DNA of 61,967 nucleotides, counting the filler, from Stramenopiles sp. TOSAG23-6 (Eukaryota), in assembly GCA_900128565.1 (NCBI GenBank). It is 21 parts of 21 records of this genome, joined end to end, with 100 filler letters (N's around TTAATTAATTAA, not from the genome) between each part and the next. Parts side by side here need not be neighbours in the genome. Positions count along the whole stretch, not along the records: positions 11,868 to 14,732 come from LT637782.1; 20 more parts are not named here. The stretch is one strand, 5' to 3'. Below, one piece after another: positions 3,855-44,419 of this stretch. A model generated the notes under the pieces. That model did not search any database, was not told where the DNA came from, and worked only from the letters and a program-made list of their open reading frames with translations. Each line of letters opens with the position of its first letter. Position 1 is the stretch's first letter. Both the position numbers and the translations under genes were made by a program.

Positions 3855-5778
3855 TCAATAGTAGCTCATTCGATCATCTGTTGCTTTAGAAATTTCTCCA
3901 AGTAGAGCAGATTTACGAAGTAATTGTTGTTCTTTTTGAAAAAGCATTTTTTTTAGTGATGCAGTTTCATATGAGGCAGATGCCAACGCTTTTCTTGTGG
4001 CTAAATCAACCTCAGCTTGATATTTACAGATTGCATATATTGTAAGAAAATATTTCAAATTTTGTTTTCGTTAGGTACAAAATGTACTACGAAATATTTT
4101 TTTTAAATCTAGGAAAAAAAACATACATCTGTAGCAATAAATTTGATCTGACGCTCCCTTGCATCACTCGCTTCTTCTGACAATTCATTTGCAAATCTGT
4201 TACGATCAGTTTGCATCTTCAACGCTACAAAGTCATCAGATGTATTTTGGAAAAATATTTCAAAAAAAAAAAATAAAATTTGTTAGGTACAAAATTTAAA
4301 TTTAAATTTTTATAAAAAAAAAAATTCGAATTTGAAAAAAAATTAAACATACATGCTTGTTGTGCAACACGACGTTCCATTGCTGCATCTTCACGAGCCG
4401 AAGCCAGTTCCTTTTGCAAACGTTTCACTTCTAATCCAAGACGTTCACACCTATCATTCATTTCATTGTTCAAGTTTTCAGATAATTTATCTTTACTGTT
4501 TACACTAGAGACAGTAGAAGGGTTAGATTTATATGTATTTTGGAAAAATATTTAAAAAAAAATCTAAAAAAATCGTTAGGTACGAAATTTTGTACGAAAA
4601 AACAAATCAAATTTAAAAAAAAATAAAACATACATACTCCATCGGTTATATTCGTACTCTTATTCATTGAATAAAACATTTCGATTTCTTCTCTTTCTTC
4701 TTCCAATGATGATACTTTCTTTAAAAAATCCACAAACTTATTCTGAAACCAATTTGTTTTCTTTATCATTCCATGAATACTTTTTTTTAAATATAAAATT
4801 GATTTCTCAGAAGATGAAACGAGTCTCTTTGTGTACGCACTATAATTTTCTCTCTCATTATAAGCTGTTACTGGATGAAATACATCTGATAAATAAGAAA
4901 CAGATCGTTGAAGGAGTGTAAGCTTCTCAAAAGTTTCTCGAAGAGTTACATGTATTTTGGAAAAATATTTCAAAAAAAAAACTAAAATTTGTTAGGTACA
5001 AAATTTAAATTTAAATTTTTATAAAAAAATAAATTCGAAATTGAAAAAAAAATAAAACATACATTATTATGTTGAATGCTACTTTTGATAAATTCTGATG
5101 TTGAAAGAGTTTCAAATAATTTGAAATTAAATTCAACATTTGAAAAATCAACATTTAAATCAACATTTGAAAAATCAACATTTAAATCAACATTTGTGTG
5201 TACATTGGTTTGTGTTTTCAAAAAAGAGTCTGGTAATTGTTGCATTGTATAATCTATTGCATGGAACTCTTTTGAATTTTTATTCAAGTTGTTCCATATT
5301 TTTTCTTTTTTATCATATAATACCGTTGGCGACGTGGATGAAAAGTCAACATTATTTTCACCTAATTTTGATAACTTTGATAAATTTGATGATGAATGGC
5401 GAGGTGATGAGTCATAGCTTTCGTTGACAGAATTTGTGGACGTTTCTATGATATCATGATTGTTTATAGTATCTATATTATCAATATTATCTATATTAAA
5501 AATTCCTTCAAATTTGCTATCTTCCATTCGCTCCAAATCGTCATCGTCATTTTGATGATTTTGATGATTTTGATGAGTTTCATCCTCATCGTCATTTTGA
5601 TGATTTTGATGATTTTGATGAGTTTCATCATTACAATATACCCTTGACGATGGCTTCTCAATAAAATAACCATGTAAAGCAGTATTTTTACTATTATTCA
5701 CACTTAAGTTTTTGGTATTTCTATTTTTTTTATTTTGATTACTATGAAAATTTGCTTCTTTTGACATATTTGGATAAA
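3855..5778 (-). CDS. Partial coiled-coil protein; GT-AT introns at 4950-5062, 4533-4633, 4240-4352, 4035-4126
   Basis: All four junctions join in frame when cut GT..AT (HNN|VTL, GVY|KSN, QAS|DDF, TD|AIC). Confidence 0.75.
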
Positions 5779-5937
5779 ATGTATTTTGGAAAAATATTTC
5801 AAAAAAAAATCTAAAAAAAATTGTTAGGTACAAAATTNNNNNNNNNNNNNNNNNNNNNNNNNNNNNNNNNNNNNNNNNNNNTTAATTAATTAANNNNNNN
5901 NNNNNNNNNNNNNNNNNNNNNNNNNNNNNNNNNNNNN

Positions 5938-6397: not shown

Positions 6398-8694
6398 ATG
6401 CAAGCCGGAAATTGCAATGTAATGATGAGAAAATTATTCGTTGGATTTAAAGCAAACTTTCTTCGTGTAAGCTTATTATTCATTCTTTTCCTCTCCGAAT
6501 CTTCTTCTTTCGAGTCTTTACAAATTCCTACAAAGCACGAAGTTGATCAAAATGAACGTTTCCAGACAAAGGAACAATATCGATCATCCTTGGCGTATGC
6601 TGCAATGATATCTTCTGAAATAATACATATTCCTCGTAAGCTTAACCAAGCAACTGCTTCTTATGAAGTGGGTGCTGATGGCTGGATACGTGCTCTTCCA
6701 GGCTCAACGTTTCGATATGGTGAAGTGTCAACGGAAGATAGAACTGCCTCCTCGGCACAGAAGTGGAGTACACCCGAAGAAGCGTCATCTTTAGAATTAG
6801 CTAAAAAGGCAGAAGCATTGATGGGTTGTTTAGATGATGGTGGGGCTGATTTAACAGAAGCTGTAGCGATAAGCGGCTCGATTATTTTATTTCTTGGTTT
6901 TTTGAGTGGTTGTTTGTTTGGTCGATGTTTCTCTTCAAAAAGAAAACAAGCCATAACACCTCTGGCCGCTGACGCAAGCTTGTACCTCAATCAGGGAAAT
7001 GGAAAATCGGTGTACAGTGAAATCATGAAAAAACATTCCTTGGGAAGTCGTCAATTTATGATGGATCTAGCAGTGCCTATACCTGCTGAAGACTCAGGTA
7101 CAGACTTATCTGACGACCCTTTTTTTGACGACCAACCACCAAATGTGAGGAATACTTTAAGAAAAAATCAACCTGGCTGGAGAGCTCGTCGTAATGATAT
7201 ACGTAAACGTAAAGAAGCTTTATTGTTAGGACCGAATAGTTCTGAGGCAAAGAAGGTTGAAAAGGAAGACAGAGAAGAACTTGCTCAACTATCTTCAAAG
7301 AAACGGTTGAATCGTGATGAATTACGGCGGAAGCAACAACTAGCAATGCAACTTCATAATGCTGATGTTGCTGCGACTGAAGCTCGGAATAATGCTCTAG
7401 TGTCTGCTGGACAGGATAAAATTGATGCTAATGAAATTCAAAAACGAATGATGGCTGAAGGAATGACAGATAAGGGAGTATATAACAACGCGCGAGAAAA
7501 ACAACGAAAGCTCATGGAAGAAAAACGCCGACGTAAAGCAGAGAAACGTGCAAAGCAAGGAAAGCCTCCAGTTCCTGTTCAGACACCGGAAATGATAGCT
7601 CAACAAGAAGCCATAGCTCTCATGGATGATATTTCAAAACTTCCTTCTCGGGAAAGAATTGCAGCTACTGAAGAAGGATATATTGATCACGTCAGAAGAA
7701 GTATACAACAAGGCAGAGAACCTAAACCATGTTTGTTTTATTTTTTTTTAATTTTTTGTCTAAATTGTTTTTTCGTACTAAATTTCGTACCTAACGAATT
7801 TTACAAAAAAAATACTTTTTCACAACATATACTCTGTCTGGGCTCTTCCTATGAAAGTTGGCCTTATGTACGTCTTCATCATCAACTTCAAATGTTTTTG
7901 TAAACCAATTTTGTAACTAACAATTTTTATTTTGAAAATATTTCCCAAAATATATTTCCCTCGATGATGATGGCGGTGTAGGAGGACAACAGAGAGTCTT
8001 TGGCCGTGGGGCAAGAAATTTCTCAAATCTTGTGATGCGTCAGAAAGATCACTTGCAGCATACCAAAATGGTCACTAATATTACACAAAAATACAATCGG
8101 GATGCAGATGAGCGTCATAATTCTCTGGAGCGAGATCGCCTAGAGCATAAAGCTAGAATGAAAAAGAAACGCATGAGGCGTACGTTTTCCTTTCAATTTT
8201 CGAGGTTTTTTTTCGTACGAAATTTTGTACCTAATGATTTTTTTTGAAATATTTTTTCACAATATATGCAAGCATAAACACGATGAAAAAGGTCACCGAA
8301 TTAAACGAGTTGAGGATGAGTTTCAAGCGTCGCAAGAAAGACGCGATGCACATATGTACGTTTTCATCATTCATTTCAATTTTATTTATTTTTTGTAGCA
8401 AATTCTAATTTCGTGTCATGTCTCTTACGACTTTCAAATTTGACATATTTTGTACTCTACATGGACGCAGGTAGAGAAGAGGCAAGAGAACGAGCAAGGA
8501 AAAGAAGGCGAGGGAGAAGGAAAAGACATCAGAGAGACATTGAAGAGCTAACACTGGAAGATGTTGATGGTACTGGCCAAGGTGTTGACGAAGAAGAAAA
8601 ACAGCGGCTGCATCGACAGAAAATGCAAGAGAGACACCGTAAAAGAAGAAACGATGCACTTAAAGAAAAAGGCGAAAATCCTGTTCCAGAATAA
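6398..8694 (+). CDS. Hypothetical signal-peptide/transmembrane protein with charged coiled-coil tail; introns 7731-7830, 7868-7955, 8180-8267, 8356-8462
   Basis: Long first exon plus four in-frame GT-AT joins linking the ORFs at 6398, 8032 and 8413. Confidence 0.75.
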
Positions 8695-8902: not shown

Positions 8903-10676
8903 ATTTCAGAAGAATCTTATTCTTATATAGATTAAATTTTGAGATTGCAAAATTATCATCAAAAGTGGAACTCAACTTTTACACCTGCAACCTATATGGA
9001 AAGTGTATACACAAAAAAGGGTGCTTTAGATAAAATTTCAAACATTGATGATATACTTTCACGTTATCCTGGTCAGGAGCATATTGTTATCCGAGAAGTG
9101 ATGAAAAAATACAAGACTTTAAAAAGTGAGGTCTATCCCATCTTGATGCGGTATGTATGTTTTCATGATGAATTTCATTTTTTTTTCGTACCAAATTTCG
9201 TACCTAACGATTTTTTTTTGTGTGACATATTTTTTAATCAACAGGAAGATTCACCTGAAACGTTTCGTTCACTTGAAGCAAATTCTGTACCTCAACTAAT
9301 GTTGATATTACCAAATGGTCGGAAGAAAATTACTAATTTTAAACCAGATGTTGAGAAGATTTCAGAATTTGTCAAGAAACATTTAAAAATTGACGTTCCT
9401 CTGTTCGTTTTCATCATTCATTTTATTTTTTTTTGTAGTAAATTTTGTACCTAACAAAATTTTGAAATTTTTCAAAAATATTTTTTTACAATTTATTTCT
9501 CCTCGGTCTGATAGTTATTTACCATATACACTTTTATGTGCTATATTTTTAGGTTTTTTACCTCCTTATCTTAGTTCAATACGAAAAGTAGTGAATATTT
9601 TAACATCGAGATGGATGGTACGTTTTTACTACAATTGTTTTTTTTTCATAGAAAATTTTGTACCTAACAAATTTAAAAAAAAATATATATATTTTTTCAC
9701 AAAACATGTTATGGTTTTAGCATTGGGAGTTTTTTTTGTGTCATCAAGTGGTTCAATTTCGTGTATTTTACAAAAATCACCTCTTTTTACTATGCAGAGA
9801 AATGTTCGTTTTCATCATGAATTTCAAATGTATTGTTCAAATGTATTGTTCAAATATATTTTTCAATTTTTTTTATACGAAATTGTATACCTAACAAATT
9901 TCAAAAGGTAAAAAATATATTCCCAAAATACATGTATGTTTCCATTTCAATTTCGAATTTTTTTTTTTTTTTATAAAAATTTTGTACCTAACGAATTTCA
10001 AAAGGTAAAAAATATATTCCCAAAATACATATTCCTCATTTTGTATACCCAAACGGACAACAACAAACTCTAGGTGAAGGTTTGATTGTTGGTTCTATTT
10101 ATCTCAGTATCAGTTTTTGTATTGTGTACGTTTTCATCATTAATTTTAAAACGTTTTTTTTTTCATACGAAATTTTGTACCTAATGTTTTTTTTGGAAAT
10201 ATTTTTTCACAGTACATGTTGCTATATAAAGTCTCAGGTAGTCCAACAAAGGAAAGTTGTAACCCTAATCGTATAGTATCTAATACGGAAAATCCGTATC
10301 TAAATTCGACCCATATTTTATCTTGTTTGATGCCTTCAAATGAACAAAAGTTACAAAATTTAAAGGGATATAAATGGACATGGTGGGGTCGACCAGCATT
10401 AGAAATCATGATAGATGACCGTAGATCAAACAGCCCTAACCCTACATTTTTAGCTGATGTACATAAATTGTCATTTACATCTTGGAGACAGCAAGGATTT
10501 CGTGTGGGTGGAATGCAATGGCTACAATATTGTACGTTGTTTACTTTTTACTTTTTTTTTTTTTTTTGTAAAAATTCTTGTACCTAACGAATTTCAAACG
10601 TAAAACATATTTTCCCAAAATACATTTGCAACAGCTTTTCTATCGGGTTGTTTTGTCTTTTTATATTATAATTTAA
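8903..10676 (+). CDS. OST3/OST6 (MAGT1/TUSC3-like) oligosaccharyltransferase subunit, 5' partial; introns 9155-9244, 9403-9496, 9618-9707, 9804-10030, 10126-10217, 10532-10625
   Basis: Spliced product has FRSLEANSVPQL, a TM with SSSG..CIL.KSP, and QQQTLGEGLIVG, typical of OST3/6. Confidence 0.7.
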
Positions 10677-11712: not shown

Positions 11713-11953
11713 ATGTATTTTGGAAAAATATTTAAAAAAAAAATCGTTAGGTACAAAATTTCGTACGNNNNNNNNNNNNNNNNNNNNNNNNNNNNNNNNN
11801 NNNNNNNNNNNTTAATTAATTAANNNNNNNNNNNNNNNNNNNNNNNNNNNNNNNNNNNNNNNNNNNNTTTTATTTTTTTTCAAATTCGATTTTTTTTTTT
11901 ATAAAAATTTTGTACCTAACAAAAAACATTTCAAATATTTTTCCAAAATTCAT

Positions 11954-13314
11954 GTACCTGTAGATGAAGGTCACTGTTATATATGGGGCCAGCCACTAGG
12001 GATGAGTTTGGATGCACAACAATTAAATAAAAAAGAGAAAAGTAAACAAAAAATATCTATAAAATTTCTAAAAAAGGGTAAAAAAATTCGTCCTACATTG
12101 GAAGGAGTAATTGCTAAACCATTACTGGTACAAAATTCAGTAAGAAGCCCTCAAAAAATAGTAATATCACATATATCGTGTGGTTATCGCCATACTGCAC
12201 TTACAACACAAAATGGATGTTTGTTTTATTTTTTTTCAAATTCCAATTGTTTTTTCGTATGAAATTTTGTACCTAACGAATTTTTTTTGAAATATTCTTC
12301 CAAAATAAATGTTTGTTCACATTTGGGCATGGTGTATGCGGTCGTTTAGGTCACGGCGGGACATGCGATGAAGTTTATCCTAGGCGCGTGGAATTTTTAA
12401 ACAAGTTGAATGTCTTTACAATTGGTTCAGCCTGTGGTCGCGAGCACACATTATGCTGGACAGTTGACGGTCGACTATTTTCATGGGGCTGGAATGAAGC
12501 AGGTCGATTAGGTCTCGGAGATGAAGATACTCGTTTCATACCTACAGAAGTTTCATGCCCAAAACAGTTATTTCGATACGATAGTTTAGCGAATGATGGC
12601 ATGTCGTCATCAACCGATTCAGATTCATTTGAACATCTAAGTGAAAGACAATGTATGTTTTATTTTTTTTTTTAACAAAAAATCGATTTTTGTTTTTATA
12701 AAAATTTTGTACCTAACAAATTTTAGTATTTTTTTTTGAAATATTTTTCCAAAATACATCTTTATCGTTGAATGATTGGGTAAAGAATGCGGCATGTGGT
12801 CGAGAACATACGTTAGTTGTCACAAAGAATGGTATACTACTTGCTTGTGGTGCTGGTCATGTATGTTTTATTTTTTTTCAAATTCGATTTTTTTTTCGTA
12901 CGAAAGTTTGTACCTAACGATTTTGTTTTGAAATATTTTTCCAAAATACATGGATTCCGCTTGGGAAATGGAAAGCAACGCGAACAATTGCAACTCGAGC
13001 CTGTCTTTGGAGAGTTACGGGATGAGATTGTTATTTCAGCATCTGCTGGGGAAGCTCATTCAGCATGTCTGACAATTGATCGTCTTGTATACACTTGGGG
13101 ATTTGGAGGATCTGGAGCTCTTGGACACAATTGTTTTGAATCAGAGAAGTTTCCTCGACGAATTGACTTTGCGCCTGTAGGTGCAAAGCAAATTGCATGT
13201 GGGGCATATCATACTGCTATCTTGGATATTTTAGGTAATTTATGGACTTGCGGTGATGGTGAGAATGGACAACTTGGGCGTTATGTATCAAAACAGGAAC
13301 GTATTGATCGATAG
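11954..13314 (+). CDS. RCC1-repeat protein, partial; introns 12219-12310, 12653-12759, 12861-12951
   Basis: Repeated ACGxxHT / WGxxxxGRLG motifs, continuous after splicing. Confidence 0.92.
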
Positions 13315-20977: not shown

Positions 20978-22579
20978 TCAATCATCGGTTCTCTTGTGGC
21001 TGTTGGCTGGGCAGCAAAAGGATTTCGTTCTCTTGGCTGGGAAGCTCTAGGTGAAGTTGGTATATCATGGATTGTATCTCCTTTGGTGGGTATGATTTTT
21101 GCAGGTGTTATGTTTATAATCATTGAACAATCAACAATGCATAGTCGATATCATACAAAAGGTGAAGTAGGAAAGAGATCGAAACAAATGCAACCTATTT
21201 TTATGACTTTTACAATATCGATGTGCATTGCATTCATTTTAGTAGCTGGTCCAAAACCTATTGCTATAAAAACAAAATGGCTTGCGATTCTGATATCTGT
21301 TGGAATTGGGTCTGTTATTACAATTGCATCAATGTGTTTATCACGAAAAAAGGAAAAACAAAATTCTTTAGATGAAAATCTCTTTATTTTAAAACATTCA
21401 GAAGAAGAAGGAGGAGGAGGAGTGGATAAGAGGTCAATTTCTAATAATTTTAGACGACAACAAAGATCTCAAAGAACGGGAAATTTTCTTGGTTCCGCCA
21501 AACTTCATTTATTTCATTCTGATGGAGATGATGATGATATTGAATGTGGAATTAATACTGGAAGTAATCTTGATTCACTTTTAGGTGAATTACCACATGA
21601 AAAAATTCAACTGCCTGGTTTTCTAGATGCTTCGGAAGTCTCTGAAGAAAATGTATGTTTTTATCTTTCATTTTATTTTAATTTTTTCTAATTTATTATT
21701 TTTTCATACGAAATTTCGTACCTAACGATTTTTTTTATTATCCAAAAAAAAAAAAAAAATATTTTTTCCAATACAGGATGAGCCATCCTCGACTGTTAGT
21801 GTTCAAACAAAACAACGTTCAATAGCAAAACAAGAATCAAAGACAGGATTGTCACATGCAACAGAATACTCTGGTGATGAAAACCGTACAGCAAAGGATG
21901 AAAAACTCCGTGCACGTGTTGCTGCTGAAGCTCCTTTTGTCCCATTATTGGCCATTTCAGCGCTAAGTGTTGCTTTTGCACATGGTGGCAATGATGTTGG
22001 AAATTCAGTAGGTCCTCTTTGTGCTATATTGGATATTTATAATAACAGAAATAATAGTGGTAGTTTTAAGATTAATTCTACTCCTGAAATTGAAACATGT
22101 ACGTTTTTCATCATGAATTTCATTTTTTTTGTAAAAACAATTTTTTTTCATAGTAAATTTTGTACCTAACAAATTTTTTACTAAAAACATTTTTTTTTCA
22201 CAATACATGGGCGTTAGCTTTAGGTGCAATAGGTTTTGTTATTGGAATTATTTTTCTTGGCAGTCGAACTATCGATACAGTTGGGAATCGGATTACGAAA
22301 TTAACTCCTTCTCGTTCCTATGCGACTCAAATGGGTGCTGCTGTTGCCGTTTTGGGATCTTCTGTTTTTGGTTACCCGGTATCTACTTCACATTGCCTTG
22401 TTGGTGCTGTAGTCGGTGTTGGACTGGCCAGCAAATGTTGTGGTATGACACAGTCTTCTACTTCACTCAATTTTAAAATTTTACAGAAAATTGTAGTAGG
22501 CTGGGTGGTGACGATACCTCTTGCTATGCTTTGTGCAAGTATTGTCTTTATACCTGTTCAAAAGCTACTAGGATATTAA
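20978..22579 (+). CDS. PiT/PHO4-family phosphate transporter, 5' partial; introns 21653-21776 (GT-AG) and 22099-22208 (GT-AT)
   Basis: AFAHGGNDVGNSVGP and PVSTSHCLVGAVVGVG signatures. Confidence 0.95.
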
Positions 22580-23412: not shown

Positions 23413-23780
23413 ATTATTTTCTATAACTATAAGTACTAATATTAAAGTAAATTTAACGATACGATGACTCACAAAATATCACAATAATCGACGCCCTTTG
23501 ATAATATTTCTAATTATCTTCAGGAAGACTCGAGTCGAAACAAAGAAGGAACAAACAAACGACGAGTCAAAAGAAAAAACACGAAAAAAAAAAAAAAAAA
23601 AAAAAAAAAAACAATTTTTTGANNNNNNNNNNNNNNNNNNNNNNNNNNNNNNNNNNNNNNNNNNNNTTAATTAATTAANNNNNNNNNNNNNNNNNNNNNN
23701 NNNNNNNNNNNNNNNNNNNNNNTGTTTCTTTTAGTATGTTCTAAAACCAAACTAGGTGAATTCGATGATTTCACCAAAAT

Positions 23781-24491
23781 ATGACAAAGGATAACGCTAG
23801 CCATTCTCTTTTGTTTCTTTCATCAGATGAAGATGAAGATATTCCACCTCCCTCAGATTTATTTGGATCATCAAGTGATAGCGAGTCTGATATATTTGAC
23901 CTTTTAATCAAATCGTCAATCCAATACAATACAAAAGTGAAAGGACTTTCAATAGTTAATAATTTCCTTTCACTGCAACAACAGCATACACTTGTGCAAG
24001 AAATTAAAGCAGCTGGATGGTTTATAGATAAAAAGAATCAAATGTTTGCCTTTGGTTATGATAATTTACCCCCATTTATTAAAGCTTTAGGTGTAAAAGT
24101 TTCACAAGTTGCAGGCTTTTTTACTAGTAAACTCCGAAATAGACGTCCTCTTTTCGATCAAATGATTGTACATGAATATGGACCTGGCGAAAGTATATGC
24201 CCACATATCGATCAACTTCAGTATTGTGATGGTATTGCTACAATCTCATTGCTATCTCGCTGTGATATGGTATTTTCGAAAGAATCCAACAATAAAAAAG
24301 AATGTGAAGTTGTCAAATTAAAACCAGGCACTTTAGTTGGTTTACAGTCTTGTGCTCGGTATGAATGGAAACATTCAATAAATAATGTAAAAACTCGACG
24401 TAGATCAATTACATTACGCAAATTTCTACCATTTGATCAAAGACCAAAGAGAAAAGTTACAGAGTTTTCTACTATTCAATTAAAAAACTAA
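23781..24491 (+). CDS. AlkB-family 2OG-Fe(II) dioxygenase
   Basis: DQMIVHEY..PHID..WKHSI..RRSITLR. Confidence 0.9.
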   Translation: MTKDNASHSLLFLSSDEDEDIPPPSDLFGSSSDSESDIFDLLIKSSIQYNTKVKGLSIVNNFLSLQQQHTLVQEIKAAGWFIDKKNQMFAFGYDNLPPFIKALGVKVSQVAGFFTSKLRNRRPLFDQMIVHEYGPGESICPHIDQLQYCDGIATISLLSRCDMVFSKESNNKKECEVVKLKPGTLVGLQSCARYEWKHSINNVKTRRRSITLRKFLPFDQRPKRKVTEFSTIQLKN

Positions 24492-24737
24492 GAGAAATCT
24501 CTACAACCAATTATATTATAAACTTATTATTATTATTATTCTGATTCTTATTACAAAAAAGTACTTTTTAGATAAAATTAGTCATTTCGTTGAATTGTTT
24601 ATATTTATTAAAATAATCAATGACTAAAATTATTTTTTATAGTGTCTATTTCTATTCTATTGTGTTTTACTTTTTACTTTTTTTGTTCTATTGTATTGCG
24701 TACCAAGTAGTTTTTTTTATACAATATTTACCATGAC

Positions 24738-25310
24738 TTATTTATTGTATTTTGACCTTGCCTTTTTCAACATCATCTTTACATATTTTTTATACGACGT
24801 TGCTGCTACAATTTGTTTCAAAAAACGTTTGTTTTTTATGTCATTACACGCCGCAATGGCAACAATTTTGTATATACTTTCTGCGGAATCGAATCCTTCA
24901 GATTCTGCAAATTGTTGCAATTGTTCGTTCATGAGTCCTTCAAATGTTTTAAATGAATTATACCATTCTAGATTTTGTTCCCCATTAGCAACATTAGTAA
25001 TTGTTCCATGTTTTGATTCAGATATCTTTGACTTAAAAAGTGATATATTTGATTTGTAAAATTCGTCAAATTTGGAAATCATGACACTAAATACAAATGT
25101 ATAAAGCTTGCGCAACACTTTTGAGTCTTCTGTTATATCAACTTTACCACAATAACCTAAACTTTTCCATTTCTTTCGCTTTTCAGACTGACTGAGATTA
25201 TTTTTTGATTTTACGACATCATCTTTTAAAATATCGACACTTCTATTCTTACTTTCCCATTCTCCAGTGGTTTGTTTTGAATCCAAGCTATGATTCACCT
25301 CACCTGGCAT
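24738..25310 (-). CDS. ARL2-binding BART-domain protein
   Basis: EQNLEWYNSFKTFEGLMNEQLQQF..IVAATSYKKYVKMM resembles the BART domain. Confidence 0.6.
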   Translation of the reverse strand: MPGEVNHSLDSKQTTGEWESKNRSVDILKDDVVKSKNNLSQSEKRKKWKSLGYCGKVDITEDSKVLRKLYTFVFSVMISKFDEFYKSNISLFKSKISESKHGTITNVANGEQNLEWYNSFKTFEGLMNEQLQQFAESEGFDSAESIYKIVAIAACNDIKNKRFLKQIVAATSYKKYVKMMLKKARSKYNK

Positions 25311-25644
25311 CCCTTTAAGATTTCAGCAGCATCAAAGAGTGTCATTCGTTCTAATAATAGTCATCATGACTAAGGAAAATATTTCCACGTAAAGTTTTTA
25401 AAACGGAAAACCGTTGTTGTACCTGCTTGACCGTTTTGTTGGTTTTGGTACGGAAAAATGGTACGGAATTTTGATGTGGAAACCAGTCAGATTCATGACT
25501 CTTGTCCAACTAAAAGGTAGCAACTGCACTAACTGCACTCGCACTAACTATCCTTATAGTACCTGTATTTAGTGTTTGTGCAAATTATAATCATACGTAT
25601 TCCATTATCTAGTAATATCATTATATTTAGTTTTATATAGAATA

Positions 25645-26100
25645 ATGTCAAACTCAACTAGCCACTTTGATAAGAGTGAATCTCAAGAAAATGAATCGAC
25701 AAATCACACAAATAGTACAGATAAAAACACCATAGTCCGAGAGGATAAGCGAGAAAACATGATTCGCCAAATGTTTATTACCTTTGATCAAGACCAAGAC
25801 GGTCATTTGAACTACGAAGAGTCTGGTTTATTTCAGTGGATTACGGATGGTAATATGCTTCCTCCTATGATTTGGGATATGGTGTGTGAGAAAGTTGGTG
25901 TTGCAAATAAGGAAATGGGTATGTCATTTACCGAATTCCGTAGTACTTACATGAACGAAACACTGGCAAAGGAACTTGATGCAGATCTCGTTGCGGATTA
26001 TAGACAATTTGTGAAATGGAAAGTACAAAAAGCACAAAAAGCAAAAAACGCAGAAGCATCAAAACCCCCTCCAATTATGAAACTTGAAGACGCAAAATAA
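25645..26100 (+). CDS. EF-hand protein
   Basis: FDQDQDGHLNYEE EF-hand loop. Confidence 0.75.
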   Translation: MSNSTSHFDKSESQENESTNHTNSTDKNTIVREDKRENMIRQMFITFDQDQDGHLNYEESGLFQWITDGNMLPPMIWDMVCEKVGVANKEMGMSFTEFRSTYMNETLAKELDADLVADYRQFVKWKVQKAQKAKNAEASKPPPIMKLEDAK

Positions 26101-26275
26101 TATAAGTTTATCCAAATTAAAAATCATTTATTTTCTAAGCCAAAAATTTATTTTNNNNNNNNNNNNNNNNNNNNNNNNNNNNNNNNNNNNNNNNNNNNNN
26201 NNNNNNNNNNNNNNNNNNNNNNNNNNNNNNNNNNNNNNNNNNNNNNNNNNNNNNNNNNNNNNNNNNNNNNNNNNN

Positions 26276-26584
26276 ACAGGAACACCTTCTAATTCTGCTT
26301 CCCTTTCCGTATATTCCGATTTTTTCAAGACTTGCCACCATGTGCCTTCTGGATCAACTGCAAAAAAATATTGCTGTCCATCAAAATCTTGATATCTACC
26401 AGACTTTCCCTGTTTAGTTCCTTTCATAGCAACCATTACACCAGCGTCTTTTGCTTGTTTCATTAAATTCACACGACTTCGATCAATAAAACCACGTATA
26501 GTCGACTGTAATTTAATAATTGCGATTTCGTTCATTTCTTTATTTGAATTATTTAATTCATTTGCTTTAGGCAATTCACAACTT
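26276..26584 (-). CDS. IQ-motif protein fragment
   Basis: IIKLQSTIRGFIDR. Confidence 0.6.
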
Positions 26585-26684
26585 NNNNNNNNNNNNNNNN
26601 NNNNNNNNNNNNNNNNNNNNNNNNNNNNTTAATTAATTAANNNNNNNNNNNNNNNNNNNNNNNNNNNNNNNNNNNNNNNNNNNN

Positions 26685-26980
26685 TCCGGACTTTCTATAT
26701 CCTGTATTATGTCCAGTGCTAACTCGTAAAAGGGGACCTGTGCGCTCAAGCCTGATAGGTTGAAATTATCTTGAATAAAAGCCTCCTCTACTTCGCAAAA
26801 AAATTCATTCCCTTTCAGTCCACAATACCACGTTATCCACGATTCAATCTCTTCGTCTGAATCCGAGAGTTCGCTATCATCTAACCGTTCCCCGTGAACA
26901 TCATCCACTGGGTAATTCGATGGGCCACCGTCCTCCCCCCACGTTTGATTCACACCACCTGACCTGTTCCACTGCGACAT
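26685..26980 (-). CDS. CSNK2B: Casein kinase II regulatory subunit beta, 3' partial
   Basis: [32 protein letters not shown]. Confidence 0.95.
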
Positions 26981-29134
26981 ACGCTGCCACTACCAACCAA
27001 CCGTGGTGTAGTGTATATATGTAAAACCGACGAAAGACGAACACACGCGTGAATAAGCGAGAGTTGCTTCTTTGTTCTTTTCTTTATCTCTGATCTCAAG
27101 ACTCTATCTGGTTTATCTTTGATTTCGTCTGTCACTCTCACTTACTCAGGTGTCTGTATGCGATTATTTAATTGTCATCATGAAGTAATAATAATTTTTA
27201 TTCAGAAGAAGAAAAAAAGGAAGAAGAAGAAGAAGAAAAAGAAGAAAGAGAAAAAAAAGAAAAAAAACAACAACCATCACATCATCATAGTTACAGTAGT
27301 CCTATTACATATTATTATAGAAAGTATTAATCAATTAAATAATAATAATAATAATATAAAATAATAAATACGAAATACTACAGAGTATTAATACTGTACG
27401 TGGGTGGGGGGGTGGATTTAGATTTTATAAAATTCAAATCAAAATAAAGGACTACTATGAGCCAACGTTTGAGTAAGTATAAACTCTTCTATTTAAAATT
27501 AAAATTGGAACCTGATCTGATACGGTATTAGATGTATTATATTAATACCGTAGTTAAAAGAATAATAACGTTTATAGTAATATTAATATTTATTAAGGTC
27601 TCTTTAAGCTTAAGCTTTTTACACTATACTTATTTTATTAACATAATATAATGGTTTAAATTTACTTACAATCACTTTAATTTTCTTATATTTACTTATT
27701 CTACTCTCTCCTTTTTCTTCTTCTCCTATTTATTATTTAAGTTATAGTACGGATGCGACGCCAGTCTATCAAAACAACAACTGATTTGATTTTTATGGAT
27801 GATGATGGATATAGATATAGATGAGGAATAATGTCACATTATAAAAAAAAAAAAAAGAAGAAGAAGAATTATTACTGTACGAGGTTGGTAGAGGGTAGGG
27901 TTACTATTACATTAAAATAAGAAGAAGAAGAAGAAGAAGAAGAAAGAAAATTTATTATTATATTATTATTTATTTTATTATTATAAATCTAATTATTATT
28001 ATTATTTATAATATTATTTATTTTTTCTTATAATTAATTAGCTTATTAACTCGTTCGGAGTCCTGTGCGGTACCGGTACATATGCCGTTCGTTCTGCAAT
28101 GGCAGGGCGCCAACGTTGGTTTGTAATAGCACTTGGCCCCGACNNNNNNNNNNNNNNNNNNNNNNNNNNNNNNNNNNNNNNNNNNNNNNNNNNNNNNNNN
28201 NNNNNNNNNNNNNNNNNNNNNNNNNNNNNNNNNNNNNNNNNNNNNNCGCAGGTTTTCGAAAGGGAGTGACAACTGTTATACATTTTGAGAGCGGGGTGGT
28301 AGAGAGAGCAACGATATACCAATTTTATTGCTTATTTTGTGGCTCTGGTTCGACCAGCCCAACTGTGAATTTATAGAGAGTAAGCTTCTGCAACTACGTG
28401 ATGTCGAATCAGTGCAAGCACAACCCGTTTTGTGACATGGAAGTGTTTATTGCTGTGTCTTGGGTAATTTTTGGTTTGGCGCACGCGTGTGGTCTGAGTG
28501 GTCTTATCTATCTTTGGGTTACCCCTGCTGTTACGAANNNNNNNNNNNNNNNNNNNNNNNNNNNNAACCGTCTCCAAGAAGGTCTTTTAGACCACGAAGT
28601 CAAACCAGAAGAGACGGCCTGAGACTAGACGGGGTTGCAGCCTCGAAGTTTTGTTCTGTAGATAAATGGAGTTGGAAATTACGAGTATACCACAGTTTTG
28701 AAATGTTTTTTTTTATATAAGAATTAAGATAAAAGAAAAAGTAGAGTTCCTATCATAATTTTAAAAAACAAATTATATAGTATGTTTTAAGACTCTCATT
28801 TTCTATCATAATTTTATAACATTAATTTTATGCACGCCACACCCCAAATACCACACAGGCTTTTCAAAAGGACAGAGAAGAATCCAATTTTCTATAACTG
28901 TTGTTTCCCTACTTTCGTTTTGAGGCAGCAGCAGATAGGATTCAGGGAGGTGAGTTGGCTCTTGAACCGCATTTGCCCCCATTTTAATACGAAGTATAAA
29001 CAGAGCATCATACTATATCATTAGTTTTTTTTTTTAAACAGAGCATCATTACATTTTTTTTTTATTTCCCAATACAAAATTCTTGAAACAACGCATCAAG
29101 GACATCTTCCACCTGAACGGTGCCTGTTAGTTTC

Positions 29135-29545
29135 TCAAGCGCCGTAGAAGCCATGCGCAATTCTTCGGCAGCCAGTTCCAACTGTCCGTGGNNNNNNNNN
29201 NNNNNNNNNNNNNNNNNNNNNNNNNNNNNNNNNNCTGATGCACTTTAACTGCTTCAAAGCGGTCGATAAACAGTCCAACGTCTCGACGAGGCGTTTTTTC
29301 TGCCGTGCACGAGATATAACCAAAGACTCTTTCCCAGAAATTGCTCCGAAATCTTGGGCGTTTGAGGGGCCAATCTGCTGCATCAATTGCTCCTTAAAAA
29401 TGTCGATTCCAGTGTCGTCGTGGCAAGATACCAAAGCCATCGGTACCCTTTCAATCCTGTCCACTCCGTGTTGCATGAAAAATTCCCGGACAAGGGGACC
29501 GACGGCATCTTGCTGCCCGCCGTCTTCCACGGCCACGGGGGGGGG
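29135..29545 (-). CDS. tRNA modification GTPase MnmE/GTPBP3 C-terminal fragment
   Basis: VSC....[14 protein letters not shown]...LDCL, then ELAAEELRM after the gap. Confidence 0.6.
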
Positions 29546-29904
29546 NNNNNNNNNNNNNNNNNNNNNNNNNNNNNNNNNNNNNNNNNNNNTTAATTAATTA
29601 ANNNNNNNNNNNNNNNNNNNNNNNNNNNNNNNNNNNNNNNNNNNNTGGACTTCAGATTTATCAGGACTTTTGGATATTTGGCCACGAAACGGGTGGGCCG
29701 AATGTGCCATGAAATTGTATCAGGCAAATAAAGTGATTGTTAAATCTCGAAAAGAAGACCAAAAATTGCGTGATCTCCAATATCCAGACCGTACTTTAGG
29801 TGTTCCTCGTACTGTTGAAGATGTTTGTGGTATAGTCATTGATGATGTTGATGCTGCTGCTGGTGAGTCGAAAGTGTAGAAATGTGATACATACAGCAAT
29901 AGAC

Positions 29905-30040
29905 AAATTAGGAAAAATTAGGAAGAATAAAAAAATTAGGAAAAATAAAAAAACAATAAAAAAATTAGGAAAAATAAAAAAGAATAAAAAAATTAGGAAA
30001 AATAAAAAAATAATAAAAACATTAATAAAAATAAAAAAAT
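29905..30040 (+). repeat. A-rich degenerate tandem repeat (AAAAATTAGG/AAAAATAAAA units)
   Basis: Direct inspection. Confidence 0.7.
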
Positions 30041-30134
30041 GCATATAATTTATACAATCATTTTACACATACGCAATGTAAAGAAATATCCTTCTCATTT
30101 TCTTGGTTTACTAGGTTTGTACTTGAATGGTATG

Positions 30135-32339
30135 CTAATTTTGTTTTCGTTTTCTTGGTTTACTAGGTTTGTACTTGAATGGTATCCTACAATATTCAGA
30201 AGATTTGTTCCTCAACATTTTTGCTAATATATCAATATAAGCATATAAAGCTTCACGTCCACTTTCAGTCTTTGGTCGTCCTTCTGGTGGATCGATTCCA
30301 AGAATAGAATCAGTCTTCTTATTCACAAGTACATTCGTTCTTAGATATTTCGCGACTGAATTGAGCAATTCTTCAACTTGTTCATGGTATTCGTTATCAT
30401 CTGTCCAATACGATCGTGCCATTGACTCAACTAAAGCCAAGAGAGTGCATAATCTATTATGTGGACTCATTGGTCGCCTTGCGACTTCAAATTCAGCCTT
30501 GTATAACCACATTTTGAGATTGCCAGTATCCGTATTGCCCTTATCCAAACGTTTGCGAATATCATTTGACTCACCATCTCCCCAACTACAATGGTTTAAA
30601 ACACGAGCATGGATAGTTTCAAAAGTTGAAGGCAGCCACAGGACGTGAGTATTTGATGGTAACTGCATTATTTCTTCTTCATCTTCTTCTTCTTCCGACA
30701 TTTTCTTATTTGCTTTCAGAAGCAGCAATTGCGATGCAATGCATGAACAGTCATCATCATCATCATCATCTTCTTCTTCTTCTTCATCACTGTTTTCATT
30801 GTGTTCCTTTGGTATGGATTTTTCTATAAACATGTAACATCGTTTTGTTGCTTCAGATATGTCTTCAATTTCTTTTTCCCATACTTTAGATTTTTCTTTC
30901 ATTTCTTTCATTTCTTTTTTTTCTTTTTTTTTGTTGGATTTTTCTTTTTGAGGTGGTATATACAGTAATTCAAAGGCAATGGCACTACCACCTTCTGGAA
31001 TCGAAAAGTGTGGCATCTTACCAATGACATCATCAACAGGTCCATTTAGTTTAAAATTTATATTTTCTTCACAAACTGTACCAACACAACCTGCCATTCT
31101 ATATGAAACAAAATGCTCCCAATGATCAAAAATATCCTTTATTTCATCATCACGTGAATATTCTCTTTTCATCAAAAGAATAAATTCGCTAGGGTTAGTA
31201 CATTTAGTAGAGTTAGTAGGGTTAGTAGGTTTGTCGTCAAGATTCTCAAGAGTAAATGATTCCACCTTTTGTTTCTTCTTTGGTGGTTGTTCTTTGGTGG
31301 TCTTTATCACATTCTCATCATTTTTCGAGTTTTTATTCTTCATCACATTCTCATCATTTTTCAAGTTTTTATTCTTCATCACATTCTCATCATTTTTCAA
31401 GTTTTCGTTTGTAGACCTTGCAGCAATGGAAGTACCAGAGCTTTGCAGTGATAGCCAATATCGATAATTACTCAAGGTTTTGCATGTAGCTTTTGCTAAC
31501 TTTTCACAATCTGGTCGACGTAAGGATTCATCACTGAGAAAATTCTTAGCGTCTTCCTCAGATGAAAACAAATGACCAACTGCAAGATGCTGTATGAATT
31601 TGCGAGGAATAAGTAACTGAACTTGAAGTGTATCTGGAGACTGAGTATAGAACACATTTTTTGCCACATCGCACGGTTCAGCAGGATATGACGGATGCCA
31701 AGCAATCTCACTACAAATGGATTCTTTACTAATGGAGTCTAACCACTGTGCTTTTTCAAGAAAGGTTGAAGGGTTACTGAGATTTTTTTCCCACCTTCTT
31801 ATATATGACTCGTCATTTACACAATCTTGGACAACTTCATATTTATCAGAAATAATGAATGGTTCTGATGTTTTCACACATCGCTCGACGTAACGAGTAC
31901 GGCGACAATCGGGTGTATTTGGCAAGACGTCGTCAATGATTGCCATACACTGCATTTTCGTTGTCTTGAGATGACGCAGATCTTTCGTTATACAAACTTC
32001 ACGCTCCGCCTCAATCACCTTTGCGCGCTTCTTTGGCCTCACAGATTTTGGAACGCGTTTGGGCAGACTAAAATTGATCTTCTTCAGTTTCCCACTAGTA
32101 TAAGTGGGAGTGGTCTGAAGAAGATCTTTTTCNNNNNNNNNNNNNNNNNNNNNNTGAAGAAGATCTTTTTCAATCGGAGACGAAAAAGACGAAGCTTCTC
32201 GTCGCTTTTTTTCTTCCTCCAATAAACGAATTATGGAAAGGTTCCTCTCTTTATTAGCTTCCAACTGTGCAATTTTGAGGAGCAACTCCTTAACATTAAC
32301 ATTATCTCCATTACTTTTGGGCACAATTGTTGATAGCAT
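30135..32339 (-). CDS. Hypothetical 734-aa protein with acidic tracts and a 33-bp tandem repeat (KNDENVMKNKN)
   Basis: Long intronless ORF. Confidence 0.75.
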   Translation of the reverse strand: MLSTIVPKSNGDNVNVKELLLKIAQLEANKERNLSIIRLLEEEKKRREASSFSSPIEKDLLXXXXXXXXEKDLLQTTPTYTSGKLKKINFSLPKRVPKSVRPKKRAKVIEAEREVCITKDLRHLKTTKMQCMAIIDDVLPNTPDCRRTRYVERCVKTSEPFIISDKYEVVQDCVNDESYIRRWEKNLSNPSTFLEKAQWLDSISKESICSEIAWHPSYPAEPCDVAKNVFYTQSPDTLQVQLLIPRKFIQHLAVGHLFSSEEDAKNFLSDESLRRPDCEKLAKATCKTLSNYRYWLSLQSSGTSIAARSTNENLKNDENVMKNKNLKNDENVMKNKNSKNDENVIKTTKEQPPKKKQKVESFTLENLDDKPTNPTNSTKCTNPSEFILLMKREYSRDDEIKDIFDHWEHFVSYRMAGCVGTVCEENINFKLNGPVDDVIGKMPHFSIPEGGSAIAFELLYIPPQKEKSNKKKEKKEMKEMKEKSKVWEKEIEDISEATKRCYMFIEKSIPKEHNENSDEEEEEDDDDDDDCSCIASQLLLLKANKKMSEEEEDEEEIMQLPSNTHVLWLPSTFETIHARVLNHCSWGDGESNDIRKRLDKGNTDTGNLKMWLYKAEFEVARRPMSPHNRLCTLLALVESMARSYWTDDNEYHEQVEELLNSVAKYLRTNVLVNKKTDSILGIDPPEGRPKTESGREALYAYIDILAKMLRNKSSEYCRIPFKYKPSKPRKRKQN

Positions 32340-32949
32340 GGTATTTCTGAGCTTGAGAGTGAAGAAAGCATAACTTATGTTTTACTATTCTGGCCAGCGC
32401 TTTCTTTTATGTCATTTGAAAAACACGTGTGACTTAAACATGTGTGATACCCGGTACCTACTAATCCGGTACAAAAAATATTCAGCGTATATAAATCCAA
32501 AAACCNNNNNNNNNNNNNNNNNNNNNNNNNNNNNNNNNNNNNNNNNNNNTTAATTAATTAANNNNNNNNNNNNNNNNNNNNNNNNNNNNNNNNNNNNNNN
32601 NNNNNGTACGAAATTTTGTACCTAACGAATTTTTTTTGAAATATTTTTCCAAAATACATTGTTTTGAAAGTGACGGTTCGTTTATGAAATTGTTTAAGAA
32701 AGTTCAGTAGCTCAATTCAACAGCGATAGTAATAGTTTAATATAGTCACGAGATAGTTTGTAAGGATATATATATATACATACATAAGACACATAGATAT
32801 TCATTATTCATCAAAGGAAGGAAAAAAAAAAATGTTTTGTTAGGTACAAAATTTCGTATGAAAATATATTTTGAGTGTAAATTATAAATTAGTCGTAAAC
32901 TCTTTTCTTTTTTCGTTTATTTAGTTCGTAGAGAATGAAATGACTACAA

Positions 32950-34116: not shown

Positions 34117-34926
34117 ATGTTAAGACCAAGTTCGTCCTCCAAGGAGACTGACCTTTCTGAATTATTTGAAAACAAAATCGAAATATCGCGCCCAAACTCT
34201 CAAAGTAGGCAACGTATTACGAATAGTAGTGATTGTAATAATAACTTTGCTAATATTGAAGCGCGTGATTTACTTTATTCACTAAAGAGTAACACGACAG
34301 ATCCTGTAACGAAAATTATGAAACAAGTTGAACAAAATGATCATGATGCACTTTTATTAGCTGCAGAAAAAGGTATAATAAAGGACGTAGTTCATCTTCT
34401 CGATCGTGGTGTTGACCCAAGTGATTGTTTTGGTTTAGGACTGTTTACTCCACTTCATCACGCGTGCAATCGAGGACATTTATTGATTGCAAAATTGCTT
34501 GTTGACTCGGGTAGTGGTGTCAACGTTTGTAATAAATCTTTAGAAACTCCATTGCACCTTGCGGCATATAATGGACATTTATCAATAGTAGAGTTTCTTC
34601 TCGACAAAGGTGCTTCTATTGATTGTAAGACAGATTGTGAAGACACTCCTTTATTCTATAGTTCGAGGCGAGGGCATACTACCGTTATTCGTCAGCTGCT
34701 TCAACGCGGCGCCGATTCTACTTTACGAAATCGATTTGATGATCTTCCCATAAGCGAAGCTCGGACGGATCGGGTACGAAATGCGTTTACCGTTGAAGTA
34801 GTAGGAACAGCATTGAGTGAACGTGTTTTAGTTCAGGATATATTGCATCGATTATTACAGTTTTGTAATTCTCAAGAGCTATCTAGAGCAGCCTGTGTTT
34901 GTACGTTTTTATCATACCACATTTCA

Positions 34927-34959
<33 letters not shown>

Positions 34960-35379
34960 AGTTAATACCTAACGAATTTTTGTACACCAAAAAAAAACAA
35001 GTATTTTTTCACAATATATGCGGCCGTTGGCAACGTGCTGCGGAAGATAGAACTCTTTGGGATGCTCTTGGTGTAAAAAGGTGGGAACTATCTATACAAT
35101 ATCAAGTATCTGGTTTTAAGCCAGCTGCAATGGCGTCATATAGACCAGGTATAAAGAGTAGAACTCCTCCTCGAAGTTGTCGAAAACCAAACATTCGAAA
35201 TTTGTTAGGTACGACATTTGGTATAAAAACAATAGATTCGAAGTTGAAAAGAAATAAAATCGAAATTGAAACTAAAGTAGAAGTTCAACCACAACAACAT
35301 TCTGGAACTAAACGACCAAGTAGTGGTAGTAGTTCACCCTCTAGAAGGGAAAAGTTTGCGACTGATCTTCGGCATTCAT
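34117..35379 (+). CDS. Ankyrin-repeat + F-box protein, 3' partial; intron 34901-35019
   Basis: TPLHHAC/TPLHLAA/TPLFYSS ankyrins; F-box DILHRLLQF..LSRAACVC|GRWQRAAED..LW. Confidence 0.88.
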
Positions 35380-35560: not shown

Positions 35561-36384
35561 CCATAGAACCGACAGTGAGAAAATCTCGACTATGATCTTG
35601 TCCGAAATTATCTCGAAGGTCATAAACTTCTCTAGATGTGAAACCAGTTGATGATACTACGGCACCCCAATCCCCTATTGCAGGTAGTAAAATCTCCAAC
35701 ATTTTCTCACGAGTGAGTTCTGGGGAAATCGCAGAGTCGACAGGGAAAAACTCAACAGGATTCTCAGATTTATACGTTTCAAAGGTATTTTTTTTGACAA
35801 GTAAAGCAAAGGGACCACTTCGACGTCTAATGGTTTCAACTGCATTTTCAACAACTCGCGTTGCTCCTTCAGAAAAATCAGGCAAGACTTCAAATGGGAC
35901 ATTCATAGACGCGAGCATAGCGGGAGTAAGCTTGCCTTGAGTAATATGTTGGGGCTCATCACGTTTTCCAGGTTCTCCGCGCCAACCTATGACAAGTAAC
36001 ATTGGAATGGAGTACACAGTTGGATCAGCAAGAGATAATAACGGATTTACCGTATTACCAAGACCCGAATTTTGTAAATAAACTAGAGGAATTTTACCTG
36101 TAGCAGCATGATACCCGGATGCAATGCCAACTGCAGCACCCTCATTTGAACAAATGACATGTTCTTCTCTGCTTGTGTTATCACTGACGTAAGCGTTAAA
36201 ATTTTTTAACAGACTATCTGGGACACCAGCGTAAAATCCAATCCCATTATTTTTAAGTGTATTAAAAAGATCAGAAGGTTTGAGAAAATCTTGTTCTAAC
36301 TCCGTCAGGGGGCCAGCTGCTAAGGAAGATAGCCCACGGGATTGAACTACATGACGTGATGTAACATTAAGAGCAGACTTGATT
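35561..36384 (-). CDS. Phosphonopyruvate decarboxylase (ThDP-dependent); start unresolved, 3' truncated
   Basis: FYAGVPDSLLK, NEGAAVGIASGYH, YLQNSGLGNTVNPLLSL, IGWRGEPGKRDEPQH, DFLTVGSM. Confidence 0.93.
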
Positions 36385-36587
36385 CTAAAGTGGTCGTCAA
36401 GTCTTTTTAGCTTAGGTACAAAATTTCGTACGTTTTTTTTATTAGAGTTAGGGTGTCACGTCCTATGTCAGGCAGATTTGCTACCTTTTTTTTTTTGGAA
36501 AGAGAAACTTGTTCACATTGCGCGGATTAACTTTATGACTTCTCAATAAATTATTTTTCTAGTACGAGATATTCTAAAGTTGTACCA

Positions 36588-37541: not shown

Positions 37542-37689
37542 AATATTTCAAAAAGAAAACTTAAATTTGTTAGGTACAAAATTTCGTATGAAAAATAAAT
37601 TCGAAATGTAAATAAACTTTAATGAAGTGATGTTGACTTTGATTTATACACTCCACATCTTGTGGAAAAAATACTTGATACTATTAATG

Positions 37690-40868: not shown

Positions 40869-41310
40869 GGATTAGGGTTAGGGTTAGAAATTTGTATATC
40901 ATTTTCAACATTAGGGTTAGGGTTAGGATTATTTTGTTTTGTACTCAATTCTGTACCTAACGTTTTTTTTTCTTTTGTAGAGTAGCGTAGTAAATGTTTG
41001 GAATAAACCAAAACAAATTCCACAACTGTTTGTCGTTTTCTTCTTGCTCGTGAATCGGCAACACTCATATGATGGGAAAAAATATTTTTTTTGTATAATT
41101 TGTTAGGTACGAAATTTCGTACGAAAAAAAACATAAAATTTTTTTTGAAAAAAAAAAAAAAAAAAAAACTAAAATTTGTTAGGTTCAAAATTTCGTATAA
41201 AAAAGAAAAAAATTGAAATTCATGATGAAAACGTACATAGGTGACTCGTCAGCAGCACATTTGGCAAGAAGAGCAATAACAGCATATTGCCACGTAATGC
41301 TATGGCACTC
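38607..41310 (-). CDS. FANCI: FANCI-like DNA repair protein, internal part; introns 41067-41236, 40584-40708, 40244-40443, 39945-40077, 39703-39822, 39174-39355
   Basis: EWLDY..LLRCLRPLIGIS..LMIFLRKKLM..RKMAIAGFCLIL..FEALNCLKLAL..LRYFLYDNL resembles the FANCI solenoid. Confidence 0.7.
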
Positions 41311-41464: not shown

Positions 41465-41470
41465 ACCAGT

Positions 41471-41518
<48 letters not shown>
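41465..41518 (-). tRNA. tRNA-Phe(GAA), 3' truncated by contig end
   Basis: GCCGCGATAGCTCAGTTGGGAGAGCGTCAGACTGAAGATCTGAAGGTCACTGGT. Confidence 0.92.
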
Positions 41519-44413: not shown

Positions 44414-44419
44414 ACCAGT

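Follow-up and report, generated by a model that had tools for sequence, protein, structure and literature searches.

The introns modelled in this study in the genome of Stramenopiles sp. TOSAG23-6 (assembly GCA_900128565.1) belong to one family of short segments that can be aligned from end to end, and most of them begin with GT and end with AT. The stretch of DNA that was analysed, referred to here as the window, is 61,967 bases long with a GC content of 31%, and consists of about 21 contigs of about 2.85 kb placed in order of decreasing length, with linkers of 100 bases (N44-TTAATTAATTAA-N44, for example at 2871-2970 and 5838-5937) between them. Because the window is made of separate contigs of a fragmented assembly, the unrelated genes in which the introns are found sit on different contigs. 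As judged from reading frames and protein homology, GT...AT appears to be the simplest single splicing rule for the family, and this is the most secure new point of the study. As to origin, it is probable that the family is introner-like, meaning that its copies share a common descent and have spread through genes.

A family member is about 85-125 nucleotides (nt) long, and longer where an internal unit has been duplicated. Four blocks make up most of its length. The first is the donor, GTA(T/C)GTTTT, which is followed by a variable T-rich stretch. The second is a 25-nt block, TTTC.TA..AAATTT(T/C)GTACCTAAC, with a branch-site-like box at its end and a T/A-rich spacer after it, and the third and fourth are GAAATATTTTT and the terminal C(C/A)A(A/C)AATA(C/T)AT. 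Conservation within the four blocks is 75-100% across all copies, in contrast to the spacers, which vary freely. Across 38 introns the distance between the donor and the start of the box has a median of 54 nt (42-83), and for the distance between the presumed branch A and the 3' end the median is 40 nt (33-59), with a T-run between the box and the 3' end.

Splice termini of the family

The splice termini were counted in a curated set of 38 complete introns; of the 73 loci found by the profile search described below, those that are degenerate or truncated at a contig end do not enter this set. The first dinucleotide is invariably GT (38/38), and the donors read GTATGT in 17, GTACGT in 14, GTTCGT in 3, GTTTGT in 3 and GTACAT in 1. 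At the other end 34/38 introns terminate in AT (CAT 22, TAT 10, AAT 2), and the remaining 4/38 terminate in AG at the same aligned place. The 3' ends were placed with a frame-blind weight matrix, and several were then adjusted by hand, some of them with the use of frame. When the introns were excised at these ends, the dominant reading frames on the two sides agreed in 26/26 informative introns (p=4e-13), and three junctions (12219-12310, 12861-12951 and 22099-22208) match homologous proteins residue by residue. A total of 11 YAG triplets lie between the box and the used site in 10 of the introns, but only 3/11 of these are in frame, which is the chance rate. This suggests that the bypassed YAGs are not acceptors.

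Two of the best-placed introns belong to an RCC1-repeat gene on the + strand. The interval 12653-12951, which the preliminary description of this DNA had singled out, holds two family introns of this one gene, at 12653-12759 (phase 1) and 12861-12951 (phase 0), both of the form GTATGT...CCAAAATACAT, with their branch-site-like boxes (GTACCTAAC, located by the box scan) at 12709-12717 and 12910-12918. Excision of the first keeps the frame. Excision of the second gives a gap-free His|Gly junction when compared to the homologues P0036, P0037 and P0050, and this intron is 0.90 identical to the one at 61525-61617. A third intron of the gene, 12219-12310 (GTTTGT...AAAT, phase 1), splits a Cys codon (T|GT), again without a gap against the same three homologues, which are 36-47% identical overall to the spliced model. 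The 3' part of another family intron at 11870-11960 (+; nhmmer E=4e-10) is cut by the contig start, so that the contig end lies inside the element. The remaining residue-by-residue junction is in a PiT/PHO4 phosphate transporter gene, where removal of 22099-22208 (+; GTACGT...CACAATACAT) restores a Trp codon (T|GG) whose residue aligns with a Trp in 8/8 of the homologues listed, without a gap at the junction. In the same gene the family intron at 21653-21776 (+) ends in CAG and the spliced model is open across it, so AG-ending and AT-ending members of the family stand side by side.

A hydrolase-aminotransferase fusion gene shows how a GT-AG rule treats such an intron. Removal of the family intron at 61525-61617 (+) keeps the frame, and the exon that follows it can be aligned with homologues from the second residue onward. 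The public coding sequence P0101 (59992-61967) is 100% identical over the long exon, but it models a GT..AG intron at 61565-61663 instead. That intron begins within the family intron and extends into the true exon, and as a result 13 intron-coded residues are added and 16 exon-coded residues are lost. Since P0101 forces GT..AG, the GT-AT rule was not recognised in that gene model.

One alternative is that these introns have AT-AC boundaries (ATGTAT...ATAC), or that they represent an enlarged set of U12-type introns, among which GT-AT is a known rare pair. The AT-AC boundaries would give the same mRNA for the 25 introns that follow an exonic AT, and the box resembles the U12 branch consensus, CCTTAAC. 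However, AT-AC splicing is impossible for the 13/38 introns without an upstream AT. Of these 13, 11 end in AT, and the frame is kept as GT...AT or GT...AG in 11/11 informative cases (p=6e-6), which argues that the rule is GT..AT and not AT..AC. Nor do the other signals fit the U12 type: the donor is GTA(T/C)GT and not [AG]TATCCTT, a T-run separates the box from the 3' end, and the distance between the box and the 3' end is 33-59 nt as opposed to the 10-20 nt looked for in U12-type introns and the 9-12 nt given for Physarum (10.1101/2020.10.12.336362). Both versions of this alternative are very unlikely.

Several points weigh against this account of the introns. The junctions rest on frame and homology, with an ambiguity of multiples of three where the homology is weak. 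The 3' end of 12653-12759 rests on analogy with the family, because the junction falls in a variable protein loop and a TAG at 12724-12726 is also in frame. The search with the RCC1 exon found only paralogue-like relatives, none above 55% identity, and no transcript of this organism. Relatives of the aminotransferase were likewise none above 51% identity, apart from the identical P0101, and one scan of metagenome contigs for the aminotransferase gave two loci from an unrelated organism of 50% GC, without the family.

If the introns are removed as GT...AT, the spliceosome must accept AU as the last dinucleotide in the context of this family, and it would also have to skip YAG triplets nearer to the branch box. 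Full-text searches of the literature, which covered main texts, turned up no description of a genome in which GT-AT introns predominate. Splice sites are not discussed in the main text of the single-cell marine stramenopile (MAST) genome paper, in which 'splice' and 'canonical' each occur 0 times.

Copy number, similarity and descent

An nhmmer profile built from 8 seed introns gave 81 matches at E<1e-3. After merging, these represent 73 loci in the 62-kb window, and the box GTACCTAAC occurs 90 times in the window with at most one mismatch. The preliminary description had stated that introns in unrelated genes can be aligned along their whole length, and this held: five of them (12861-12951, 61525-61617, 4533-4633, 4950-5062 and 12653-12759) align over the full length with a mean column identity of 78% and invariant ends. 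For the 33 complete introns that consist of a single unit, pairwise identity has a median of 0.69, compared to 0.60 for shuffled pairs. The highest identity between contigs is 0.90 (12861 vs 61525, spacers included), and within one contig it reaches 0.96. All introns modelled in the window are family members (a scan of open reading frame (ORF) pairs for other intron types was too noisy to rule these out). A pattern of three family blocks has 12 matches in the window; elsewhere, the prokaryote genomes searched (596 Gb) contained 17 single hits and the viral contig collection 3, and none of these fits the profile.

The distribution of the copies is uneven. Some ORFs of 2 kb are free of introns and other genes have one intron per 150-300 nt. 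Tiny exons occur as well, such as one of 45 nt between 11151 and 11105 that is flanked by two family introns. Intron phases are even (7:8:6 for the 21 introns with a single open phase). Family elements account for 11% of the sequence but contain 18 of the 40 internal contig ends (p=2e-6), which is expected because repeats break assemblies.

Not all of the data favour descent from a common copy. Blocks that are at least 90% conserved in all copies resemble selected signals, which suggests that part of the family likeness is due to constraint and not to descent. Introns on the same contig are more similar (0.727) than others (0.683; permutation p=0.001), so local conversion or duplication contributes to the similarity. 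The base at donor position +4 is linked to the type of 3' motif (11/3 vs 2/12, Fisher p=0.0018), but subfamily structure is otherwise weak: identity is 0.71 and 0.69 within the two types and 0.67 between them, variants before and after the box are not linked (p=0.77), and similarity to the family profile is not significantly different with or without an upstream AT (p=0.16). By a crude test of orientation 32 copies are sense, 3 are antisense and 38 are unclear, and selection alone would give the same result.

These observations could also be explained without any mobility, if old introns had been remodelled toward long splicing signals (the branch block and an 18-22-nt 3' motif) with the help of gene conversion, so that the family is a product of convergence. 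The conservation of the blocks next to free spacers, the single architecture of all modelled introns, the greater likeness of neighbouring introns, the weak or absent subfamily structure outside the link of donor and 3' motif, and the sense orientation of all judgeable copies bar three are all in line with such remodelling. However, more than 60 conserved positions would then need an independent origin in many introns, and an identity of 0.90 over the full length, spacers included, was found across unrelated genes. The contig breaks at copies, the even phases and the very short exons also speak against remodelling, as does an excess of AT before the donor that is dispensable for splicing. In addition, the proteins most similar to the products of the RCC1 and aminotransferase genes (45-51% identity; distant and of unassigned origin) are long and continuous, are encoded on short metagenome contigs and are uninterrupted at the intron positions. 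We consider an origin without mobility unlikely. An introner-like spread remains the probable explanation of the family. What the analysis shows is one family, the segments that are excised and an excess of AT at their 5' junctions; mobility is inferred.

The exonic AT and the mode of insertion

The preliminary description had noted that about 70% of donors follow an exonic AT and had asked for an excess over composition. Such an excess was found: an exonic AT precedes 25/38 donors (66%), compared to 9.6% of the 1993 GTs in long ORFs of the window (binomial p=5e-17). Since 13/38 introns are spliced without it, the AT excess is not a requirement of splicing. We take it to be a mark of the insertion site, often AT|G, on which the element would have entered the gene.

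How the AT arose is a separate question. The preliminary description had proposed a non-autonomous DNA transposon with GTAT...ATAC inverted ends that duplicates AT on insertion, the acceptor being the co-opted duplication. One part of this proposal agrees with the data, in that the introns end in AT and the upstream AT is in excess, and AT is thus common to the exon end (25/38) and the intron end (34/38) at the level of the consensus. A duplication signal at individual loci was not found. When exon ends and intron ends of the same locus were matched and compared with random pairings, the agreement was 0.79 vs 0.78 at position -1, 0.71 vs 0.71 at -2 and 0.34 vs 0.27 at -3, so the AT...AT pattern exists only in the consensus. 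According to the methods described in PMC9860276, a consensus-only pattern (there AG|gy...ag) may reflect either a duplication or an insertion-site preference, and the two are indistinguishable; by those methods the present pattern is ambiguous.

Further evidence falls on both sides of the duplication model. AT is commoner before GTATGT donors (13/15) than before GTACGT donors (5/13), and it is the GTATGT subtype that carries inverted arms of 9-10 nt with 89-90% complementarity. Two complete units at 9804-10030 (+), read as one intron, abut head to tail as ATACAT|GTATGT at 9933/9934, as would result if one copy had inserted into the terminal AT of another. The presence of two or three antisense fragments in exons also fits a DNA element, and target-site duplications (TSDs), terminal inverted repeats (TIRs) or both occur in 59% of the assessable introner families treated in PMC9860276, where some splice sites derive from the TSD. 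However, 13/38 introns have no upstream AT, including GTATGT-type copies that follow GC or TT, and the four introns that end in AG follow AT, AA, AT and TT and never AG. The GTACGT subtype lacks inverted ends, and the flanks are not palindromic around the AT (C at -3 in 9/38, G at downstream +1 in 21/38). The tails of the two units at 9804-10030 are nearly identical to each other and unlike the family consensus, and such private tail variants in common point to local duplication of the pair. The search for a transposase or an autonomous copy, which the preliminary description had suggested, returned none in the ORF list of the window. We regard insertion with duplication of AT as rather doubtful.

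It is quite possible, in comparison, that an element already carrying both its GT and its AT end enters AT| sites without any duplication, either by an RNA-mediated route or directly. A 4-bp duplication of ATGT was considered and rejected, because an upstream AT and a downstream GT occur together at only 4/38 loci.

Inverted ends and RNA pairing

The preliminary description had pointed to complementarity between the two ends of the introns. In a repeat search, arms of the ATGTATGTT / AAAATACAT type, 9-10 nt long and 89-90% complementary with the exonic AT included, were recovered (pairs I15, I17 and I21), so the observation holds for the GTATGT subtype. It does not extend to the GTACGT subtype, which is without inverted ends by a survey criterion of at least 6 nt. 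The alternative offered there, that the complementarity is an RNA pairing which brings the splice sites together, received little support. Predicted RNA folds contain only a 4-bp GUAU/AUAC helix, again in the GTATGT subtype only, with a mean z of -0.64 relative to dinucleotide shuffles, and the +4 change in the GTACGT donor is matched by no compensating change at the 3' end. On these predictions the inverted ends appear weak both as the TIR of a transposon and as a device for pairing the ends. A reading of the block palindrome GTACGAAA/TTTCGTAC as a conserved hairpin was also rejected, because its 5' arm varies without compensation.

The same data bear on an interpretation of the introns as non-conventional introns of the euglenozoan kind, in which the ends are paired and the terminal dinucleotides are of no consequence for excision. 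The ends of the GTATGT subtype can indeed form GUAU/AUAC, plus AU/AU with the exon. However, the helix of 4 bp is confined to that one subtype at a z of -0.64, and variable borders together with extended pairing were not seen. GT is invariant in 38/38 and a branch-like box is conserved, while the non-canonical introns of diplonemids are described as having inverted ends that are rich in G and C and that pair strongly. Such an interpretation has hardly any probability.

Comparison with known intron systems

An origin from MITE-like (miniature inverted-repeat transposable element-like) insertions is said to have been put forward for appendicularian introns by Henriet et al. in 2019. Introners are the closest comparison to the present family. 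Those of Micromonas, Aureococcus, Symbiodinium, Chrysochromulina and Florenciella (Gozashti et al. 2022, PMC9860276) are likewise short, non-coding, present in many unrelated genes of marine protists and alignable from end to end, and their splice sites can likewise coincide with repeats of the insertion site. However, the introners described in that paper are spliced as GY-AG, whereas 34/38 of the present introns end in AT, and TSDs were called there from locus-specific matches, of which none were seen here. Introners elsewhere also make up a subset of the introns of a genome, in contrast to the window, where the present family accounts for all of the introns modelled. The introner-like elements of ascomycetes resemble the present introns in other respects, since as reported in PMC9860276 they form a near-identical family without TSD or TIR, are biased to genes, and have been proposed to spread through RNA. 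They differ in having canonical GT-AG ends and in belonging to a different kingdom. A further difference concerns folding. A stable RNA structure has been claimed for the fungal elements, compared to a mean z of -0.64 for the introns described here.

Departures from GT/AG across a whole genome are described for euglenozoans, whose intron borders and end pairing are unlike those seen here, and for appendicularian tunicates (Fritillaria and relatives; PMC13326754). In the tunicate introns the 5' GT is lost too and boundaries are varied, whereas in the present family GT is invariant, the last base has changed from G to T, and the 3' motif is long. The U12 introns of Physarum polycephalum (10.1101/2020.10.12.336362) share with the present introns a burst in one lineage, extended motifs, the presence of GT-AT, and an earlier annotation that suppressed introns other than GY-AG. 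In the figures given for Physarum, GT-AT accounts for 17% of 1,014 U12-type introns among 1,425 non-canonical introns (0.8% of all introns). GT-AT is thus a minority there and the majority class here, and the donor, the branch motif and the distance from branch to 3' end of the present introns are unlike those of the U12 type. The listing of 3' sites in a 2025 survey (PMC12130899) contains only AG and AC. Because surveys of this kind start from annotated introns, as described in PMC12130899, a GT-AT family would be missed.

A possible clue to the spliceosome comes from yeast. Yeast without Prp18p uses 3' sites other than YAG, and this concerns the major spliceosome when a second-step fidelity factor is missing (PMC10711555). 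The yeast case involves a mutant and alternative sites, whereas the AT of the present introns is regular, position-specific and native. By analogy with Prp18p, second-step factors are candidates for the basis of the AT rule. We suggest tentatively that a free-living marine protist lineage might use GU-AU by default in its major-spliceosome introns, a mobile family whose 3' AT derives from or matches its AT insertion site having replaced the ancestral introns while the spliceosome co-evolved. Such co-evolution could have involved a U1 whose 5' end pairs with AU|GUAUGU, or changes in Prp18, Slu7, Prp8 or U2AF35.

Few signals in eukaryotes are as constant as the AG at the end of introns. If the scenario is true, a selfish element has rewritten one letter of the splice-site code throughout a genome. 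About nine out of ten introns ending in AU, with nearer YAGs ignored, would amount to a natural experiment on the choice of site in the second step of splicing. The family would also add a case of introns filling a genome, possibly one in which their own ends set the splicing rule. On the practical side, gene models of uncultured marine protists that allow only GT-AG would be wrong at GT-AT introns, and protein catalogues from single cells and metagenomes would be distorted in the way seen for the one coding sequence compared, P0101.

Other loci in the window

Further family introns were found on the - strand at 4533-4633 and 4950-5062, both cited in the preliminary description and aligned over their full length here, and at 4240-4352 on the same contig. 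The last is 0.96 identical to 4950-5062 and has an internal variant in common with it. Tandem internal units of about 76 nt in two or three copies were seen at 516-778 (+; three units), 39174-39355, 40244-40443, 41067-41236 and 9804-10030, and two of these share a unit junction.

Introns without an exonic AT are represented by several loci on the + strand, in all of which the frame is kept. The one at 8180-8267 follows GC and ends in ATATAT. Three belong to an OST3/OST6-like gene, at 9618-9707 (after TG), 10126-10217 (after GT) and 10532-10625 (after TT). The intron at 34901-35019, in an ankyrin gene, follows TT and splits a codon as T|GC in the spliced translation. This junction rests on frame and may fit an F-box motif, and Pfam detected no F-box in either half.

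The spliced model of the OST3/OST6-like gene is open through 6 introns, and the Pfam family OST3_OST6 matches exons 2 and 5; searches of the PDB with its exons of 32-40 residues were uninformative because the queries were so short. Between the Pfam match (profile up to 247) and the last membrane segment lies an additional open exon of about 104 codons, at 10218-10531, which represents either an insertion specific to the lineage or an error in the model. On the contig at 8903-11767 the introns of one gene carry private variants of the 3' tail (regions 9887, 9984 and 10580), and local duplication or conversion seems to act among them.

Antisense family-like fragments were found at 35184-35258 (- strand, within a + strand coding exon; nhmmer E=2.4e-7), 40930-40973 (+) and 37540-37612 (-). 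Two of them are in coding exons and are translated, and they may be exonised antisense insertions.

The sequencing-run records that match DNA of the window are seawater samples. The share of window words was 0.42-0.80 in the DNA sets X1-X5 and 0.11-0.22 in the RNA sets X6-X9, values that are uninformative on splicing and polymorphism. Rfam and ARAGORN gave no small nuclear RNA (snRNA) and no transfer RNA (tRNA) in the window, and the exon at 57617-58228 had zero matches to longer proteins.

Some contigs differ from the rest. Those at 41465-44313 and 44414-47262 are identical bar one N, which means that the assembly contains this sequence in two copies. No family element was seen on five contigs (23723-32505 and 41465-47262, which include the two duplicates) despite ORFs of up to 748 codons. 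The contig at 17798-20660 has a GC content of only 22.5%, and its introns have degenerate boxes as well as homopolymers of A or T that are 20-30 nt long. At 35561-37541 two long ORFs without introns, one on each strand, are, judging from their translations, presumably a phosphonopyruvate decarboxylase and a phosphoenolpyruvate mutase, which we take to be candidates for phosphonate synthesis.

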